This document shows, in pieces, positions 5,239 to 42,167 of a stretch of 64,000 nucleotides of DNA; position 1 is the first letter of the stretch, and each line of letters starts with the position of its first letter. The DNA comes from an uncultured Actinomycetota bacterium (GTDB taxonomy: Bacteria; Actinomycetota; Actinomycetes; Propionibacteriales; Nocardioidaceae), in NCBI GenBank assembly GCA_963701485.1, contig CAVPAA010000007.1, positions 6,894 through 70,893 of the forward strand. The letters are read 5' to 3'. A program made the translations under genes and the position numbers. Under the pieces are notes generated by a model, which had not been told where the DNA came from, searched no databases, and saw only the letters and a list, made by a program, of their open reading frames with translations.

Positions 5239-7026
<1,788 letters not shown>

Positions 7027-13622: not shown

Positions 13623-14116
13623 GGCGCATCGTGACGACCACGGTCATCGCCGCCAGCCAGCTCGCACTGGTCGGCCTGGCCGTCGCACCGCAGCTCTCCG
13701 CCAGGATCGCCGGCGACACCTACCTGGTGCGGGTGGCACCGGTCGACCCGATCGACCCGTTCCGCGGCGCGTACGTCGCGCTCGACTACCCCGACCTGCG
13801 CCACGACGGGTCGCAGTCGCTCGTCGAGCCCGGTCTCGGCTCGCTGGACGACGGGGAGTCCGGCGACGTCTACCTCACGCTCGTCGAGCAGGACGGCGTC
13901 TGGGTCGGCGACGAGTGGTCGCGCACGCGGCCGGACGACGGCCCCTACCTCGCCTGCGACGACCGGTCGTGGCAGGTCCGGTGCGGCATCGAGAGCTGGT
14001 TCCTCCCGCAGGACGACGCCCAGGAGGCCGAGCACCTGCTGCGCGACGGCGCGGTCGCCGAGCTGCGGGTCGACGACCGCGGCAACGCCGCCGTGGTCGA
14101 CGTACGCGCTCGGTGA
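13619..14116 (+). CDS. GDYXXLXY domain protein
   Basis: 165 aa with an N-terminal anchor and motif DPFRGAYVALDY (GDYxxLxY-type), translationally coupled to the DUF2157-like gene. These two families commonly co-occur. Confidence 0.75.
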   Translation: MRRIVTTTVIAASQLALVGLAVAPQLSARIAGDTYLVRVAPVDPIDPFRGAYVALDYPDLRHDGSQSLVEPGLGSLDDGESGDVYLTLVEQDGVWVGDEWSRTRPDDGPYLACDDRSWQVRCGIESWFLPQDDAQEAEHLLRDGAVAELRVDDRGNAAVVDVRAR

Positions 14117-14123
14117 CCGGCAC

Positions 14124-14151
14124 GGTCGCCGGGGCTCAGCCCCCGGCGACC
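14124..14151. terminator. bidirectional hairpin between convergent genes
   Basis: GGTCGCCGGGG-ctcagc-CCCCGGCGACC. The loop contains the sulfur-carrier stop codon. It lies between the convergent 14116 and 14136 gene ends. Confidence 0.45.
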
Positions 14152-14411
14152 GCCGGGATCACCGAGATCTGCACGCCGTCGGGCGTGGCGGTCTCCAGCT
14201 CGTCGAGGAACCGCACGTCGTCGTTGCCGACGTAGACGTTGACGAAGCGGCGCAGCTTGCCCGCCTCGTCGAGGATGCGGCCCTTGATGCCGGAGTAGCT
14301 GGCGTCGAGGTCGTCGAGCACCGCGGCCAGGGTGTCGCCCTCGGCGCTGACCTCGGACTCACCGCCGGTGTAGGTGCGGAGGATGGTGGGGATCCGGACG
14401 GAGACACTCAT
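14136..14411 (-). CDS. MoaD/ThiS-family sulfur carrier protein ending in Gly-Gly (CysO/MetO-like)
   Basis: 91 aa, MSVSVRIPTILRTYTGGESEVSAEGDTLAAVLDDL...RFVNVYVGNDDVRF...ISVIPAVAGG. Beta-grasp carrier pattern with a C-terminal GG. Starts 15 nt after the ThrC-like gene. Confidence 0.85.
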   Translation of the reverse strand: MSVSVRIPTILRTYTGGESEVSAEGDTLAAVLDDLDASYSGIKGRILDEAGKLRRFVNVYVGNDDVRFLDELETATPDGVQISVIPAVAGG

Positions 14412-14426
14412 GGGCTGATCTTCTTC

Positions 14427-15711
14427 TCAGAGGATGTCGGCCGCGACGAAGGCGTCGTAGGACGGGGCGATGGTGGCGGCGGGGCCGACGCGGTCGGACA
14501 CCGCGTCGAGGGTCTTGAGGCCGTGACCGGTGTTGATGACGACGGTCTCCAGCGAGGTGTCGAGCTGGCCGGTCTCGACGAGCTTCTTCAGCACGCCGAC
14601 CGTGGTGCCGCCGGCGGTCTCGGTGAAGATCCCCTCGGTGCGAGCCAGGAGCACGATCGCCTCGCGGACCTCGTCGTCGCTGATGTCCTCGACCGCGCCA
14701 CCGGAGCGCCGGCAGATGTCGAGCACGTAGATGCCGTCGGCCGGGTTGCCGATGGCCAGGCTCTTGGCGATGGTGTCGGGCTTGACCGGGCGGATCGCGT
14801 CGGTGCTCGGCCTTGTAGGCCACCGACACCGGCGAGCAGCCGGTCGCCTGGGCGCCGAAGACCTTGTAGGGCTTCTCCTCGACCAGGCCGAGCTTGATGA
14901 GCTCCTGGAAGGCCTTGTCGACCTTGGTCAGCTGCGAGCCCGACGCGACGGGGATGACGATCTGGTCGGGAAGCCGCCAGCCGAGCTGCTCGGCGATCTC
15001 GTAGCCCAGCGTCTTGGACCCCTCGGCGTAGAAGGGGCGCACGTTGACGTTGACGAACGCCCAGCCCTCCTCCTCGCCGGCGATCTCCGAGGCGAGCTTG
15101 TTGACGTCGTCGTAGTTGCCGTCGACAGCGACGAGCTGCTCGGTGAACACCGCCGAGTTGACCTTCTTGGGCGTCTCGAGGTTGCTCGGGATGAAGACCA
15201 CGGTCGTGATCCCGGCCCGGGCGCCGGCCGCGGCGACGGCGTTGGCCAGGTTGCCGGTCGACGGGCACGCGAAGACCTTGGCGTCGAGCTCGCGGGCCGC
15301 GCTCAGGGCGCAGGCGACCACGCGGTCCTTGAACGAGTTGGTCGGGTTGGTCGAGTCGTCCTTCACCCACAGCTTCTCGAGGCCGAGCTCGCGGGCGAGG
15401 TTCTTCGCCTCGAGCAACCGGGTGAAGCCGGGCTCGGTGTTCGGGCTCTGCTCGATGTCGTCGGGGACCGGCAGGAGCGCCTTGTAGCGCCAGATGTTGC
15501 GGGGTCCGGCGGCGATCTCCTCGCGGGTCACCGTCGGGAAGTCGTAGGCCACCTCGAGCGGACCGAAGCACTCCGGACACGCGTAGAACGGGCCGAGCGC
15601 GACCTCGTGGCCGCACTCGCGACAGGCCAGCGCGCGGGCGTTGCCGAAGGCACCCTCGCGGAGCCCCTTCGACGGCGTGGGGGTGGTGGTCTCGTCCAAC
15701 AGGGTGCTCAT
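14427..15711 (-). pseudogene. threonine synthase-like PLP enzyme, zinc-ribbon type (MetM candidate), one frame disruption
   Basis: N-terminus CRECGHEVALGPFYACPECFGPLEV, PLP-lysine region TNSFKDR, STGNLANA. The frame from 15711 decays after ...GCSPVSVAYKAEH. The conserved C-terminus (ORF 14427..14726, ...GIFTETAGGTTVGVLKKL...NTGHGLKT) is in another frame. The junction is near 14795. Confidence 0.85.
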
Positions 15712-15719
15712 GAAGTCCT

Positions 15720-15865
15720 CCTTCTCATCTGTCCCCGCGACTCTCGCTGGGTCGGATTTGGCACCTGCTCCCGCGACTGTCCGCCGGTGGGGCGGACAGG
15801 AGGCTCGCGGGTGGTTGCCGGGACTTCGTCGGGCCGTTCCCTCAGTCCCTCGTGATGAGCACGCT
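15720..15865 (-). promoter_or_regulatory. SAM-I (S-box) riboswitch
   Basis: Minus strand reads CUCAUCACGAGGGACUGAGGGAACGGCCCGACGAAGUCCCGGCAACC...CCGCGA/CUGUCCGCC..GGCGGACAG/UCGCGG...GGUGCCAAAUCC...AGAUGAG. P1-P4 can be drawn and all conserved SAM-I blocks are present. The P1 3' strand ends 2 nt before SD GGAGG and ATG 15711. Confidence 0.85.
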
Positions 15866-15936
15866 CAGCCTAGGCAGGCCGTCTCACGATGTGCACATCC
15901 AGTCCACGATGTGGTCAGGACGAGTCCGCGGTGCGG

Positions 15937-16767
15937 TCAGCGGCGGGTGGCGAGGGCGGTCAGGAGCTCCACGACGCCCGGCGGTCCGTCGACGACCACG
16001 TCGGCCAGCCGGACCAGGTCGGGCTGCTCGGTCGAGGCCGAGCACACGACCAGACCGGGCAGTCCCTCCCCGCGCAGCGAGCGGACGGCATCGAACGCCT
16101 CGACGTCGCCGAGGTCGTCGCCGCCGAAGACCACGCCGGTGGCCTCCTGCTCGGCGACGAAGGCCCGCAGGGCCTGACCCTTGTGCATGTCGCCCGAGCG
16201 GACCTCGATGACGTTGCGACCGGGCTCGACGGTGAGGTGGTGGCGCTCGGCGAGGGAGGAGATCGGCTTCACCAGCCGCTCGAAGGTGCCGGCCGGGTCG
16301 TCCATGCGACGGGTGTGCACCGCGACCGCGAGGCCCTTCTCCTCGACGTACGCACCGGCGGCGCCGGCGTTGCGCAGCACGGACGGCAGCTCGCGCTCGA
16401 AGCTCGCCAGCCCCGCGGGCGGCCGGGGCGAGCGGATGCGCTGCTCGGTGGCCGACCAGCGCTCGTTGCCGTACTGGCCGAACACGAAGAGCTCGGCACC
16501 ACGGTCGAGCATGGCGTTGCCGAGCGCGTCGAGGTCGCCCATCGCGATGGCCTGGCGCGCCGGGCGACCGGTGATCACCGCGACCGCGCGCACCACCTCG
16601 GCGAGCTCGAGCAGCGCGCCGGGGGCCGCGGGGTGCAGGCGGGCCGCCTCGGGGTCGTCGACGACCGGCGACAGCGTGCCGTCGAAGTCGAGGCCCACCA
16701 CCACGCCGTCGAGGACGTCGCGTACGGCGTCGTAGTGGGCGCGCGCGTCGTCGGAGGTGAACTCCAT
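15937..16767 (-). CDS. otsB: trehalose-phosphatase
   Basis: HAD motif I GLDFDGTL, ...AVITGRP..., KG..L.., GGDDLGD. Lies next to divergent otsA. ATG 16767; the track ORF extends to TTG 16779. Confidence 0.85.
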   Translation of the reverse strand: MEFTSDDARAHYDAVRDVLDGVVVGLDFDGTLSPVVDDPEAARLHPAAPGALLELAEVVRAVAVITGRPARQAIAMGDLDALGNAMLDRGAELFVFGQYGNERWSATEQRIRSPRPPAGLASFERELPSVLRNAGAAGAYVEEKGLAVAVHTRRMDDPAGTFERLVKPISSLAERHHLTVEPGRNVIEVRSGDMHKGQALRAFVAEQEATGVVFGGDDLGDVEAFDAVRSLRGEGLPGLVVCSASTEQPDLVRLADVVVDGPPGVVELLTALATRR

Positions 16768-16844
16768 GGGCCAACCCAACCACGTGCCGGCGCACGTGCG
16801 CCGACCCTGCCCGGGGTTGCGCCGGGCGCGGGAGGGCCGGGAGG

Positions 16845-17381
16845 TCAGCGCGGGGCGTCGGCCGTGAGGATGATGGTGAGCCGGTCGCGCTTCATCACGC
16901 CGACGGCCGGCGCCGTGCGCTTGATCCCCAGGTCGAGGGCGAGCTGCTTGCCGGCGGCCTTGAGCCGCGGCGGGAAGTAGACGGTGCTGGTGGGGATGAG
17001 GCCCTGCCAGTTGTCCTCACCGACCACGGCCCAGCCGACATCGGTGGCCTTGGTGGCGGTCGCGGCGGCGAGCCCCCGGATGCCGGAGTTGTTGTAGACC
17101 TCGACGTAGACCTCGCCGCGCTTGACCTGCGGCTTGGGCTTCGGCTCGGGCTTCGGCGTCTCGGTCGGGGTCGGCTCGGCGCTGGGCGTCTGGTCGGCGC
17201 TGGCGATCGTGGCCGTGTCGACGCGGCGCTCGGTCGGCGCCTGGTCGCGGGTCGCGACGAAGGTGATCGACGCCATCGCGACGGCGAGGACCGACAGCAT
17301 CACGAGCGGGGACGGGAAGGCCACGCCGCGCTCGTCACGACGACGGGACGCGGATCGGCCGGGGCTGGGGAAGGAGGCCAT
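16845..17381 (-). CDS. LytR C-terminal (LytR_C) domain protein with membrane anchor
   Basis: TM segment LVMLSVLAVAMASITFV, a Pro/Thr/Lys linker, then VEVYNNSGIRGLAAATATKATDVGWAV...TVYF, typical of LytR_C. Start uncertain. Confidence 0.6.
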   Translation of the reverse strand: MASFPSPGRSASRRRDERGVAFPSPLVMLSVLAVAMASITFVATRDQAPTERRVDTATIASADQTPSAEPTPTETPKPEPKPKPQVKRGEVYVEVYNNSGIRGLAAATATKATDVGWAVVGEDNWQGLIPTSTVYFPPRLKAAGKQLALDLGIKRTAPAVGVMKRDRLTIILTADAPR

Positions 17382-17442
17382 GGGGAAGGTGACCAATCGT
17401 GAGAGGGCGGGCCGTGCGATCGGAGATGAGCAGGTGGTGGTG

Positions 17443-17736
17443 TCAGATCTCGAACCCGAGGCGGCGCGCCGAGCGCTGCCGCTGGCGGGAGGCCCGCAGC
17501 CGGCGGAGGCGGCGGACGAGCAGCGGGTCGGCCTCGAGCGCCTCGGGACGGTCGATCAGCGCGTTGAGCACCTGGTAGTAGCGGGTCGAGGACATGTCGA
17601 ACTTCTCGCGGACGGCCTGCTCCTTGGCGCCGGCGTACTTCCACCAGTGCCGCTCGAACTCGAGGATCTCGCCGTCGCGCTCGCTCAGCCCGGCCGCAGT
17701 CTCCTGCTGGGCTGTGATGTGCTCGGCTGCGTCCAT
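17443..17736 (-). CDS. DUF3263-like small protein
   Basis: 97 aa from ATG 17736 behind RBS GGAGGAG. LSERDGEILEFERHWWKYAGAKEQAVREKFDMSSTRYYQVLNALID matches the conserved actinobacterial DUF3263 pattern. Confidence 0.7.
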   Translation of the reverse strand: MDAAEHITAQQETAAGLSERDGEILEFERHWWKYAGAKEQAVREKFDMSSTRYYQVLNALIDRPEALEADPLLVRRLRRLRASRQRQRSARRLGFEI

Positions 17737-17946
17737 CGGACATCTCCTCCTCGACCCCACACCACCCGTGACCGGGTGGACGGGCACGAGTCTAGGCGAC
17801 GAACGACAACGATGTCATTCGCCTCCGGCGAGTCGTCTGGACAAAACCGGCGCCGGGCTCTGGAGCGCGCCGGCCCCTCCCGGGACCGGGTGACCAGACA
17901 CCGCGGGGTGGTCTGCGCCTCGCCGGCCGTCGCTAGGGTTGCGGAC

Positions 17947-19386
17947 GTGAGTGCAGCGGCGCAGGCAGACCTCGTGATCGTGGCCAACCGGCTGCCCGTG
18001 GACCGGGTGACCCAGCCGGACGGCTCGGTGTCGTGGCGGCCCTCCCCCGGCGGTCTCGTCACCGCCCTCGAGCCGGTGCTGCGGGCCAACGACGGCGCCT
18101 GGATCGGCTGGCCGGGCTCGGCCGACGACGAGTTCGAGCCGTTCGAGGAGAACGGCCTCTCCCTGATCCCCGTCGCGCTGAGCGCCCAGGAGGTCGAGGA
18201 GTTCTACGAGGGGTTCTCCAACGGCACGCTCTGGCCGCTCTACCACGACGTCATCGCCAAGCCGGAGTTCCACCGCGAGTGGTGGGACTCCTACGTCGCG
18301 GTCAACCAGCGCTTCGCCGACCGGGCCGCCGAGGTGGCTGCCGAGGGCGCCACCGTGTGGGTGCAGGACTACCAGCTCCAGCTGGTGCCGCAGATGCTGC
18401 GCGCCTCCCGGCCCGACCTGCGCATCGGGTTCTACCTCCACATCCCCTTCCCGCCGGCCGAGCTCTTCTCGCAGCTGCCGTGGCGACGCCAGATCCTCGA
18501 GGGGCTGCTGGGCGCGGACCTGATCGGCTTCCAGCTGCCGGGTGCGGCCGCCAACTTCGTCCGCCTGGTGCGCAGCCGGGTGGGCCACAAGACCCACCGC
18601 GACACCATCTACCTCCCGGACGGTCGGCCCGTGAAGGCGACCGCGTTCCCGATCTCGATCGACACGGCCGGGTTCGAGGAGCTGGCCCGCTCGGAGGCGG
18701 TGACGCAGCGCGCCAAGGAGATCCGGGAGGCGCTCGGCAACCCCCGGCGGATCTTCCTGGGGGTCGACCGGCTCGACTACACCAAGGGCATCCACTCGCG
18801 GCTGCGGGCGTTCGGCGAGCTGGTGCGCGACGGCAAGCTCGACCTGGAGGACGCGGTCTTCGTGCAGGTCGCGACGCCCTCGCGCGAGCGCGTGGAGCAG
18901 TACCGGATCCTGCGCGACGAGATCGAGCTGCTGGTCGGCCGGATCAACGGCGACCACGGCCGGATCGGACGACCGGCGATCTCCTACATGCACTCGTCCT
19001 ACCCGCGCGAGGAGATGGCGGCGCTCTACCGTGCCGCCGACGTCATGGTGGTCACGCCGTTCCGCGACGGGATGAACCTGGTCGCGAAGGAGTACGTCGC
19101 CTGCCGCTTCGACGACGACGGCGCCCTCGTGCTGTCGGAGTTCGCCGGCGCGGCGCAGGAGCTGCGGCAGGCCTGGCTGGTCAACCCCTACGACATCGAC
19201 GGCATGAAGTCCGCACTGCTCGACGCCTTCGCCGCGGACAAGAAGGAGACGTCCCGGCGGATGCGGGCGATGCGCCGGACCGTCGTGCAGCACGACGTCG
19301 CGAAGTGGGCCGCCGACTTCCTCCGCGAGCTCGAGGCGCTGCCCGAGCACCACGACAAGACGGTGCGCGAGTCCCGCTCGCGCTGA
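17947..19386 (+). CDS. otsA: alpha,alpha-trehalose-phosphate synthase (GT20)
   Basis: [11 protein letters not shown]...GGLVTAL...[12 protein letters not shown]...VWVQDYQL...[11 protein letters not shown]...[17 protein letters not shown] 17947 chosen as start. Confidence 0.9.
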
Positions 19387-29702: not shown

Positions 29703-29778
29703 TGGAGCCGGTGACAGGAATCGAACCCGCGACATCATTATTACAAGTAATGCGCTCTACCAACTGAGCTACACCGGC
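29703..29778 (-). tRNA. tRNA-Thr (anticodon UGU)
   Basis: Minus strand GCCGGTG-TA-GCTC-AGTTGGTA-GAGC-G-CATTA-CTTGTAA-TAATG-ATGTC-GCGGG-TTCGATT-CCTGT-CACCGGC-T-CCA. Clean cloverleaf, 76 nt, CCA encoded. Confidence 0.95.
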
Positions 29779-39925: not shown

Positions 39926-40411
39926 GTGACCTCCCCCTACCCCGCCCCCCGCATCGGCATCGGCACGGACGTGCACCGGCTCGTCGTCGGTGTACCCATG
40001 CACCTCGCCGGCCTGGCGTGGCCGGACGAGCCGGCCGGGCTCGAGGGTCACTCCGATGCCGACGTGGCCGCCCACGCCGCGTGCGACGCCCTGTTCTCGG
40101 CCGCCGGTCTCGGCGACCTGGGCAGCAACTTCGGCACCTCTGCGCCCGAGTGGGCCGGAGCGTCGGGCGCCGCCCTGCTGGAGGAGACCGCCCGCCGGGT
40201 GCGGGCCGAGGGGTGGGAGATCGGCAACGTCGCCGTGCAGGTCATCGGCAACGTCCCGCGGCTCGGCCCGCGCCGCGACGAGGCCGTCGCGGCGCTGACG
40301 GCCGCCCTCGGGGCCACGGTCAGCCTGTCCGCGACCACCACCGACGGCCTCGGGCTGACCGGCCGCGGCGAGGGCGTGGCGGCGATCGCCACCGCGCTCC
40401 TCACCCGCTGA
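39926..40411 (+). CDS. ispF: 2-C-methyl-D-erythritol 2,4-cyclodiphosphate synthase
   Basis: [10 protein letters not shown]...[22 protein letters not shown]...W.GASG. GTG 39926. Confidence 0.92.
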
Positions 40412-40421
40412 GGCCGCGCGC

Positions 40422-41105
40422 GTGTCCACCGCTGTCGTCATCCTCGCCGCCGGCTCGGGCAGCCGGGTCGGCGCCGAGGTCAACAAGGTCCTGCTGCCGC
40501 TGCGGGGCGTCCCCGTGCTGGCGTGGTCGGTGCGCGACGCGCTCGCGCTGCCGGACGTACGCCGCCTCGTCCTCGTCGTGCGCCCCGAGGACCGCCCGGC
40601 GGTGGAGTCGGCCGTCGCCCCGTACCTCGGCGACCACGAGGTGCTGGTCGTCGACGGCGGTGCGACGCGGCACGCCTCGGAGTGGGCCGCGCTGCGGGTG
40701 CTGGCCCCCGACGTCGAGTCGGGCGAGGTCGACGTCGTGGTCGTCCACGACGGCGCCCGGCCGCTGGCGGGGCGTCCCCTGTGGGAGGCGGTGGTCGCCG
40801 CCGCCCGCGAGGTGGGCGGAGCCATCCCGGTGGTCCCGGTGACCCACCTGCTGAGGCACGACCAGCGGCTCGTCGGCGAGCGGGTGGGCGGCGTGCAGAC
40901 GCCGCAGGCCTTCCGCGCCCACGACGTGCTGGCGGCCTACCGGGCGGCGTCGGACGACGGCTTCGAGGGCACCGACACCTCGGCGTGCGTCGCCGCCTAC
41001 CGCGACGTCGCCGTCGCGGCCGTGCCCGGCAGCCCGCTCAACCTCAAGGTCACCTTCCCCGAGGACGTCGCGCTGGCCGAGGAGCTCAGCCCGGCGGAGC
41101 GGTGA
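40422..41105 (+). CDS. ispD: 2-C-methyl-D-erythritol 4-phosphate cytidylyltransferase
   Basis: [54 protein letters not shown]. Starts 10 nt after ispF. Confidence 0.88.
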
Positions 41106-41679
41106 GCGCGTCGAGGAGGCGTACGTCGTCGGGCGAGGACACCCGCCGACCCTCCGGGGGTGCCTCGAGCGTCTCGACCGCGTGACCGGCGGCCGCCAGG
41201 TCGGCGACCGCCCGGGCGAGGTCGGACGACGGCCACCGCGGCAGGGATGCCAGGACGGCGGCCGGGACGACGAGGGGCGAGGCGACGGCCACCAGGGCGT
41301 CGCGGTCGAGCGTCTCGCCGACGATCGGTCCGGTGGGGCCGTCGGCGACCACCTTGACGGTGTCGGTCACCGGGCGGACGCCCACGACGGGGCGCCCTGT
41401 CTCGCGCGCGTGCTCGAGGCAGGCGGCGAGGAAGGCCGGCGGCGTCATCGGGCACAGGGCGTCGTGGAGGACCAGGTCCTCCTCGGACCCGACGAGCCCC
41501 TCCCACGACACGGACGCGTCGAGGAGGTCCACCCCGGACGCGCCCAGCGCCCACGCGGCGCACGCCACCAGCGCGTCGCCGTGGATCAGCGCGTAGGGCA
41601 GGGTGCCGCGGTCCTCGTCCAGAACGAGACCGAGGCCCCGGGGAACGTCGTCCCAGGGGCCTCGGTCGGCGTCGTCCAC
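41086..41679 (-). CDS. IspD-like paralogue lacking the N-terminal nucleotide-binding motifs (probably non-catalytic or diverged)
   Basis: 197 aa. [16 protein letters not shown]...[33 protein letters not shown] aligns by eye with the IspD core. The AAGxGxR and conserved Lys loop are replaced by [17 protein letters not shown]. Lies 2 nt downstream of carD. Its 3' end overlaps ispD by 20 nt. Confidence 0.65.
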
Positions 41680-41681
41680 GC

Positions 41682-42167
41682 TCAGGAGGCGAGCACCTCG
41701 TCGAGCATGGCCTCGGCCTTGTCCTCGTTGGTCTTCTCGGCGAGCGCCAGCTCGGAGACCAGGATCTGCCGTGCCTTGGCCAGCATCCGCTTCTCGCCGG
41801 CCGACAGCCCGCGGTCACGCTCGCGGCGCCACAGGTCGCGGACGACCTCCGACACCTTCATCACGTCACCCGAGTGCAGCTTCTCCAGGTTCGCCTTGTA
41901 GCGGCGCGACCAGTTGGTCGGCTCCTCGACGTGGGCGGCCCGCAGCACGTCGAAGACGCGGTCGAGGCCTTCCTTGTCGACGACGTCGCGGACGCCGACG
42001 AGATCGAGGTTGCAGGCCGGCACGCGCACGACCAGGTCCTGCTGGGCGACGATCCGGAGGACGAGGTACTCGCGGTCCTCTCCCTTGATCGTCCGGGTCT
42101 CGATCTCCTCGATGACCGCGGCCCCGTGATTGGGATAGACGACCGTTTCGCCAACGGTGAAAGTCAT
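41682..42167 (-). CDS. carD: CarD family transcriptional regulator
   Basis: [38 protein letters not shown]...[14 protein letters not shown]. 161 aa. Confidence 0.95.

Follow-up and report, generated by a model that had tools for sequence, protein, structure and literature searches.

For the 64,000-nucleotide stretch analysed here (hereafter the window; positions 6,894 to 70,893 of the forward strand of contig CAVPAA010000007.1, assembly GCA_963701485.1, from an uncultured actinomycetote of the Nocardioidaceae), the locus at 14136-15861 on the minus strand is probably the Nocardioides version of the metM-metO operon of actinobacteria, working under an S-adenosylmethionine (SAM) riboswitch of the SAM-I class by the mechanism proposed below. 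A complete SAM-I aptamer precedes a gene for a homologue of threonine synthase (ThrC), and a gene for a small sulfur carrier follows. Aptamer and gene pair recur, with the same gene neighbourhood, in other actinobacteria, and the leader has no terminator. An earlier note on this DNA, made from the letters alone, had proposed such a module for homocysteine synthesis. The features of the locus, with the evidence for each in brackets, were as follows; numbers with the prefix L denote related loci in other genomes.

15722-15861, minus strand: SAM-I (S-box) riboswitch aptamer, helices P1-P4 with a 37-nt insertion in P3 (RF00162, covariation).
15854-15859, minus strand: 5' strand of P1, CUCAUC (RF00162; pairs with the 3' strand GAUGAG).
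15724-15729, minus strand: 3' strand of P1, GAUGAG (ends 2 nt ahead of the Shine-Dalgarno sequence).
15709-15721, minus strand: ribosome-binding region, with the Shine-Dalgarno (SD) sequence GGAGG at 15721-15717, the spacer ACUUC and the ATG at 15711-15709 (sequence reading).
14806-15711, minus strand: metM-like gene, first frame, residues 1-302 (Pfam PALP, 224 bits; TIGR00260 thrC, 252.8 bits).
14805, minus strand: single extra C that causes a frameshift in the metM-like gene (DNA alignment with L001, L002 and L004).
14427-14804, minus strand: metM-like gene, second frame, residues 303-427 and the stop codon TGA at 14429-14427 (reading in the correct frame).
14136-14411, minus strand: metO-like sulfur-carrier gene, 91 aa, ThiS/MoaD beta-grasp (Pfam ThiS, 51.3 bits, cut-off 22.5).

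The SAM-I riboswitch that the earlier note had seen upstream of the ThrC-like gene was recovered by the Rfam model RF00162, which matched 15861-15722 on the minus strand with 69.9 bits (gathering score 44.4, E 2.8e-14). The match covers the full model (positions 1-108 of 108), its sole irregularity being the insertion in P3, and the score was 108.5 bits with a covariance model built from homologous leaders. The match ends 10 nt upstream of the ATG and the 3' strand of P1 lies 12 nt from the AUG; the placing of this strand 2 nt before the SD GGAGG, with the ATG at 15711, agrees with the sequence, as had been noted before. The lack of a terminator with a U-tract, also noted before, held as well: a consensus scan of 14000-16100 gave no terminator-like hairpin with a T-run on either strand. 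SAM binding and expression control by the RNA at 15861-15722 are predicted from these features.

The same leader was found in the relatives. A homologue scan with one genome per species gave 80 loci at 63-89% identity, and the lineages sampled were Nocardioidaceae, Kribbella, Actinomadura, Streptosporangium, Nonomuraea, Pseudonocardiaceae, Kitasatospora and about 25 Streptomyces. Of 13 diverse loci searched with the Rfam model, all 13 had a match immediately ahead of the gene. A covariance model of our own, built from 14 such matches, gave a single aptamer just ahead of the ThrC-like gene in each of the 85 sources of the aptamer survey (the window and 84 related loci), which cover Nocardioidaceae, Kribbellaceae, Streptosporangiales, Pseudonocardiales, Streptomyces and Kitasatospora. 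In the alignment of the 85 leaders 99% of the cells were paired, with compensatory changes in 10 of the 25 pairs and slid controls at 53% or below, figures that are biased toward the structure because the alignment was fitted to the model.

Where a start could be assigned (79 loci), the aptamer match was always followed by the start codon at a distance of 7-20 nt, which leaves no room for an intrinsic terminator and indicates that control acts on initiation, with or without Rho. Together with the missing terminator in the window, this supports the predicted translational, rather than terminator-based, control that the earlier note had thought probable. A comparable case is SAM-I Xcc of Xanthomonas campestris, which controls methionine-synthesis genes mainly at translation (PMC7270179) and, like the window, joins a SAM-I aptamer to methionine-synthesis genes without control by an intrinsic terminator. 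The expression platform of SAM-I Xcc is long (P5-P7) and holds anti-SD and anti-AUG segments, whereas that of the window is limited to about 12-22 nt, with the SD directly against P1 and no sign of a sequestor helix of its own.

The enzyme, read with the extra C removed, is 66% identical to its orthologue in Streptomyces sp. SDT5-1, which has the same riboswitch and carrier. Among solved proteins, which include no MetM, the closest to it are threonine synthases, with scores of just 150-163 bits and identities of 34-35%; the identity to the ThrCs of B. subtilis and M. tuberculosis is likewise 34-35%, that to the B. subtilis protein being 34%. For B. subtilis ThrC compared with MetM, an identity of 33% is reported in a 2026 preprint. 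The solved ThrCs align from residue 71-75 or so onward, and none of them covers the N-terminal zinc ribbon (C30, C33, C45 and C48, two CxxC pairs encoded at 15624-15568). The pyridoxal phosphate (PLP) lysine K128, within SFKDR (codon at 15330-15328), is invariant in the protein alignment of the clade. Around residues 220-235 the clade has VNVNxRP[FY]YxEGSKT, in which R226 and Y229 are invariant in the same alignment, against SVNPxR[LI]EGQKT in all five solved ThrCs, and the clade motif may serve to discriminate MetM-like proteins from true ThrC. The Arg of the ThrC NPxR segment is presumed by us to contact the substrate phosphate; if that contact holds, the displacement of this Arg in the clade may relate to a different chemistry. 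The 66% identity to the Streptomyces counterpart, set against 34-35% to the solved ThrCs, agrees with the earlier assignment of this ThrC-fold enzyme to the MetM type.

The enzyme passes the cut-off of the thrC equivalog model TIGR00260 (252.8 bits, cut-off 167) and stays below that of NF006050 (287.3 bits, cut-off 303), and NCBIfam holds no MetM-specific model. All database records matched carry the name "threonine synthase", a uniform naming that follows from the TIGR00260 cut-off being passed. The misannotation of the family, which the earlier note had asserted, is thus seen in every matched record, and the GapMind 2026 preprint, which gives the pathway steps as MetO, Mec, MoeZ and MetM, says of MetM that it "is often misannotated" as threonine synthase.

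The product of the downstream gene, described before as a 91-aa MoaD/ThiS carrier ending in AVAGG, proved to be a carrier of the CysO/MetO type, with a ThiS domain and a C-terminal Gly-Gly: its C-terminus is PAVAGG with the stop codon directly after it. The closest solved protein is CysO of M. tuberculosis, solved in complex with CysM (PDB 3dwg_C, E 2.7e-29, 58% identity), followed by 4n6e_B, an actinobacterial ThiS/MoaD-family protein (E 2.1e-25). The carrier falls below the cut-offs of NF041918 SAMP1 (50.9 against 60) and TIGR01687 moaD_arch (35.6 against 49.5), and no moaE gene was found in the neighbourhood or among the window open reading frames (ORFs) swept with Pfam; by these sub-cut-off scores and the missing moaE partner it was not placed with MoaD or SAMP1.

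PAVAGG is present in every homologous carrier; about 50 end at that point, and in about 15 a single Cys follows (L016, L018, L019, L042, L047, L049, L051, L057, L063, L072, L075, L076, L080 and L083). In carriers with a Gly-Gly-Cys end the extra residue would have to be removed before thiocarboxylation, probably by a Mec-type hydrolase, and such carriers fit the remark on Mec maturing MetO in the GapMind 2026 preprint.

The metO-like gene lies directly downstream of the enzyme gene in 66 of the 84 loci, always with PAVAGG. The order DUF3263 / otsB / otsA ... PALP-ThiS ... groEL is common to Nocardioides and S. albidoflavus. Specifically, otsA, DUF3263, (LytR_C), otsB and the riboswitch-metM-metO unit occur in this order in the window (15937-19386, 5239-6870), in L001-L004 and in L085, and groEL lies a few genes from the unit from Nocardioides to Streptomyces albidoflavus. 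The shared neighbourhood indicates that the Nocardioides and Streptomyces genes are positional orthologues.

No metO-like gene was found within 5 kb on either side in L006, L011, L022, L037, L038, L041, L043 and L045, nor in L046, L052, L054, L055, L059, L068 and L073. The next gene in the loci that lack metO is unrelated and often encodes a cold-shock protein. With no metO nearby, the carrier would be encoded elsewhere, or the enzyme would use another sulfur donor.

The characterised system is that of S. albulus. According to papers that cite Hasebe et al. 2024 (AEM 90:e01247-24), S. albulus MetM is a ThrC homologue that converts O-phospho-L-homoserine to homocysteine with the sulfur carrier MetO, and PMC12172450 places a SAM riboswitch upstream of S. 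albulus metM and reports that MetM prevents methionine auxotrophy. The Streptomyces metM/metO route to which the earlier note had pointed agrees with these sources, which describe the ThrC homologue, the carrier and the upstream SAM riboswitch. The window resembles S. albulus in having a ThrC-homologous PLP enzyme, then a ThiS/MoaD-type carrier, with a SAM riboswitch ahead; it differs in the host, Nocardioides instead of Streptomyces, and in the frameshift of its enzyme gene as sequenced. The Streptomyces orthologues share with the window the 66% identical enzyme, the otsA/otsB ... groEL neighbourhood and the name "threonine synthase", but several Streptomyces are among the sources of the carriers that end in Gly-Gly-Cys, whereas the window carrier ends in Gly-Gly.

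Two further systems were compared. In CysM/CysO/Mec/MoeZ of M. tuberculosis (3dwg), as is proposed for the window, a thiocarboxylated beta-grasp carrier supplies sulfur to a PLP enzyme whose substrate is an O-phospho amino acid. Unlike CysM, which has the CysK/CysM fold and uses O-phosphoserine, the window enzyme has the ThrC fold with a zinc ribbon and its presumed substrate is O-phosphohomoserine; in addition, mec and moeZ are not adjacent to the window genes, which are under a SAM riboswitch. Canonical ThrC (6cgq, 2zsj, 1uim, 2d1f) has in common with the window enzyme the PALP fold, SFKDR, the STGN loop and the presumed substrate O-phosphohomoserine, but, apart from the low identity, the unaligned zinc ribbon and the SVNPxR[LI]EGQKT motif given above, it is neither controlled by a SAM riboswitch nor paired with a sulfur carrier.

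The mechanism proposed for the locus is a feedback loop. When SAM is scarce, the leader would admit ribosomes, and MetM and MetO would be made. A MoeZ-type enzyme encoded elsewhere would adenylate MetO, and its C-terminus would become a thiocarboxylate. By homology and from the S. albulus work, MetM would then eliminate phosphate from O-phospho-L-homoserine and the MetO thiocarboxylate would attack the gamma carbon, so that homocysteine formation is the putative role of the window enzyme. Release of homocysteine from the adduct would probably need a Mec-type hydrolase. Homocysteine would pass to methionine and on to SAM, which would bind the aptamer and lock P1, and the locked P1 near the SD and AUG would lower translation initiation, making the leader a translational OFF switch, possibly reinforced by Rho. 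The S. albulus genetics, which point to expression at low SAM, favour an OFF switch as well.

Several observations weigh against this reading. The metM-like gene as sequenced is not an intact ORF, and if the frameshift were real, the module would be inactive in this strain and the translation of metO would also be disturbed. About one locus in five is without an adjacent metO. In a Pfam sweep of about 40 window ORFs, no MoeZ/ThiF, Mec/JAB, CysM, MetX/Y, ThrB or Hom was found, and there was no MoeZ, Mec, homoserine kinase, second PALP protein or canonical thrC among the ORFs of the 64-kb window. S. albulus was not among the 120 enzyme matches listed for a search with the Streptomyces orthologue, and the proposed orthology to the characterised MetM rests on other Streptomyces proteins of the same architecture. 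Activity, ligand binding and expression at the locus are predictions. Leader folding ensembles, compared with P1 enforced and P1 penalised, yielded no clear sequestor/anti-sequestor pair; the minimum-energy fold of the window leader pairs the 5' strand of P1 with the start codon (-81.1 kcal/mol, against -74.9 kcal/mol with the native P1), and in the folding model the AUG of Nocardioidaceae is more accessible with P1 enforced (0.55) than with P1 penalised (0.24).

Given the frameshift, the module might be a pseudogene in decay. On the minus strand the window reads "gccgagCaccgac" where three relatives read "gccgagaccgac", and tblastn with the relatives' enzyme changes from one frame to another at residues 301-303. 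The ORF that begins with the ATG at 15711 runs, as sequenced, in the wrong frame to 14359, overlapping the start of the carrier gene, and its uncorrected translation gives an Arg/Pro-rich tail after ...SPVSVAYKAEH, while the true C-terminus (...DAIRPVKPDTIAKSLAIGNP...AADIL, stop at 14429-14427) sits in the other frame. The earlier note had described a ThrC homologue with the carrier 15 nt later. The two genes and the zinc ribbon stand, but the enzyme gene does not form a single open frame, the extra C at 14805 having been crossed unnoticed, and the 15-nt spacer between the enzyme stop and the carrier gene is obtained once the frame break is removed. With the extra C taken out, the gene encodes a clean 427-aa protein that reads ...AYKAETDAIRPVK... 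like its relatives of 426-428 aa and is about 94% identical to the 428-aa relatives; the best protein matches, including one from N. astragali, are at 92-94%.

In the pseudogene explanation the frameshift would be real, MetM would carry a junk tail, and the strain would use another homocysteine route, e.g., MetX/MetY. It has on its side the one extra base relative to three relatives, which shifts the frame, and the absence of a slippery sequence at 14805 that might have suggested programmed frameshifting, a possibility rejected on that ground. We nevertheless consider it unlikely, since both halves keep the roughly 94% protein identity to intact relatives, a strong coding-type bias in GC at third codon positions (GC3) is found on both sides of the break, and the riboswitch and metO are intact. 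In addition, at least two neighbouring housekeeping-type genes contain like insertions within about 10 kb: when the proteins of relatives are matched to the window, an anti-sigma gene (RskA-type, ~21336, minus strand) and a GDSL lipase gene (~11565, minus strand) are likewise divided between two frames, each by a single inserted base in a non-repetitive context. Three single-base insertions within about 10 kb of well-conserved coding sequence make an error-prone assembly likelier than decay, and the extra C at 14805 most likely arose by error during sequencing or assembly. A frame break in a DUF2157 gene was considered as a fourth indel and set aside, as it looks like a difference in start-codon annotation.

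The folding results bear on the direction of the switch. With P1 enforced, the accessibility of the SD 5-mer in the folding model was 0.27 in Nocardioidaceae, against 0.42 with P1 penalised, and 0.44 against 0.55 in the other lineages. The lower values with P1 enforced fit an OFF switch, while the AUG result given above points the opposite way, because GCUCAU, in the 5' strand of P1, can base-pair with AUGAGC, which comprises the start and Ser2 codons. In the window, the 5' strand of P1 with its two 5' neighbours (GUGCUCAU, 15863-15856) has a complement in AUGAGCAC at the start codon. The shift at the narrow 5-nt SD core is only modest, though in the expected direction.

Two arrangements were rejected in the course of this comparison. 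A classical sequestor/anti-sequestor was dropped as the broad region from -14 to -4 did not change consistently (0.42 with P1 enforced, 0.45 with P1 penalised), and an anti-SD in the P3 bulge (GCCUCC in the P3 insertion) was dropped as a general mechanism, being present only in some Nocardioides leaders and in no other lineages.

From the complementarity at the start codon it could be argued that, in Nocardioidaceae, the switch has the opposite polarity or acts through the start codon: without SAM, GCUCAU would pair with AUGAGC, and P1 locked by SAM would expose the AUG. The P1 5' strand and the start region could form a helix of 6 bp or more in 23 of the 31 Nocardioidaceae-like loci and in 3 of the 48 others, with 6-8% in control segments from coding sequence (CDS). 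A double change (ACUCAU with GUGAGU) occurs in L062. For the window, the alternative fold is favoured over the native-P1 fold by 6.2 kcal/mol, and enforcing P1 is predicted to make the AUG more accessible in 20 loci and less so in 4. Against these points, the signal appears in one lineage only and depends largely on a conserved Met-Ser(AGC) N-terminus, so that the loci do not count as independent; helices that continue past 6 bp are, judged by eye, no commoner than chance, and SD accessibility shifts in the conventional direction. Induction of a methionine-synthesis enzyme by SAM would also lack regulatory sense, and S. albulus MetM supports growth without methionine, which calls for expression at low SAM. 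Opposite polarity, or action through the start codon, is therefore very unlikely. The related idea that the ultra-short platform of Nocardioidaceae is a start-codon mimic of P1, with GCUCAU toggling between the P1 3' strand and AUGAGC, is also doubtful and would be put forward only tentatively.

In some leaders the bases before the start codon tend to complement the 3' strand of P1, as CUCAUG with GAUGAG in L045, L052 and L060; in the leaders of L006, L011 and L022 the corresponding bases are CCCAUG where the 3' strand of P1 is GAUGGG. Such complementarity could give the start codon a second way to pair with a P1 strand.

That the enzyme is instead a true second threonine synthase, or another lyase acting on O-phosphohomoserine or O-phosphoserine, with the beta-grasp protein serving an unrelated pathway (molybdopterin, cysteine), is highly improbable: the TIGR00260 score, the uniform database names, the in vitro threonine synthase and deaminase activities of an M. 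aeruginosa homologue (51.6% identical to MetM) and the best solved match of the carrier, CysO of cysteine synthesis, speak for it, but are opposed by the aptamer in 85 of 85 sources, the adjacent carrier in 66 of 84 loci, the low identity to solved ThrCs with an altered NPxRxEGQKT segment, carrier scores that miss the NCBIfam cut-offs for MoaD and SAMP1, with no moaE or cysM nearby, and the general consideration that repression of a true threonine synthase by SAM would be metabolically backwards. In plants, with O-phosphohomoserine as the branch point, threonine synthase is activated by SAM.

Elsewhere in the window, a tRNA-Thr gene (anticodon TGT) lies at 29703-29778 on the minus strand and is unrelated to the metM-metO locus. 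An unusual arrangement was observed at 39926-42167, where ispF (plus strand, 39926-40411) is followed by ispD (plus strand, 40422-41105) and a divergent IspD-like ORF (41086-41679) lies on the strand opposite ispD, beside carD (41682-42167); BLASTP gave no significant similarity between the two IspD-like proteins.

The metM-metO system, including its riboswitch, is already published, and the window is a further member from Nocardioides, not a discovery. What is added to the Streptomyces work is the presence of the SAM-I riboswitch with the gene in 84 of 84 sampled loci from several orders, the leader without room for a terminator, the otsA/otsB...groEL synteny, the loci (about one in five) without a carrier gene next to the enzyme gene, and the carriers with Gly-Gly or Gly-Gly-Cys ends. 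These survey facts are modest and do not overturn the current understanding. The start-codon mimic, if true, would be an undescribed SAM-I coupling of ligand to initiation, conceivably with unusual polarity. The practical value lies in annotation, where the label "threonine synthase" is to be corrected, since with the family so labelled, metabolic reconstructions of Nocardioides and other actinobacteria miss a homocysteine route and over-count threonine synthases.

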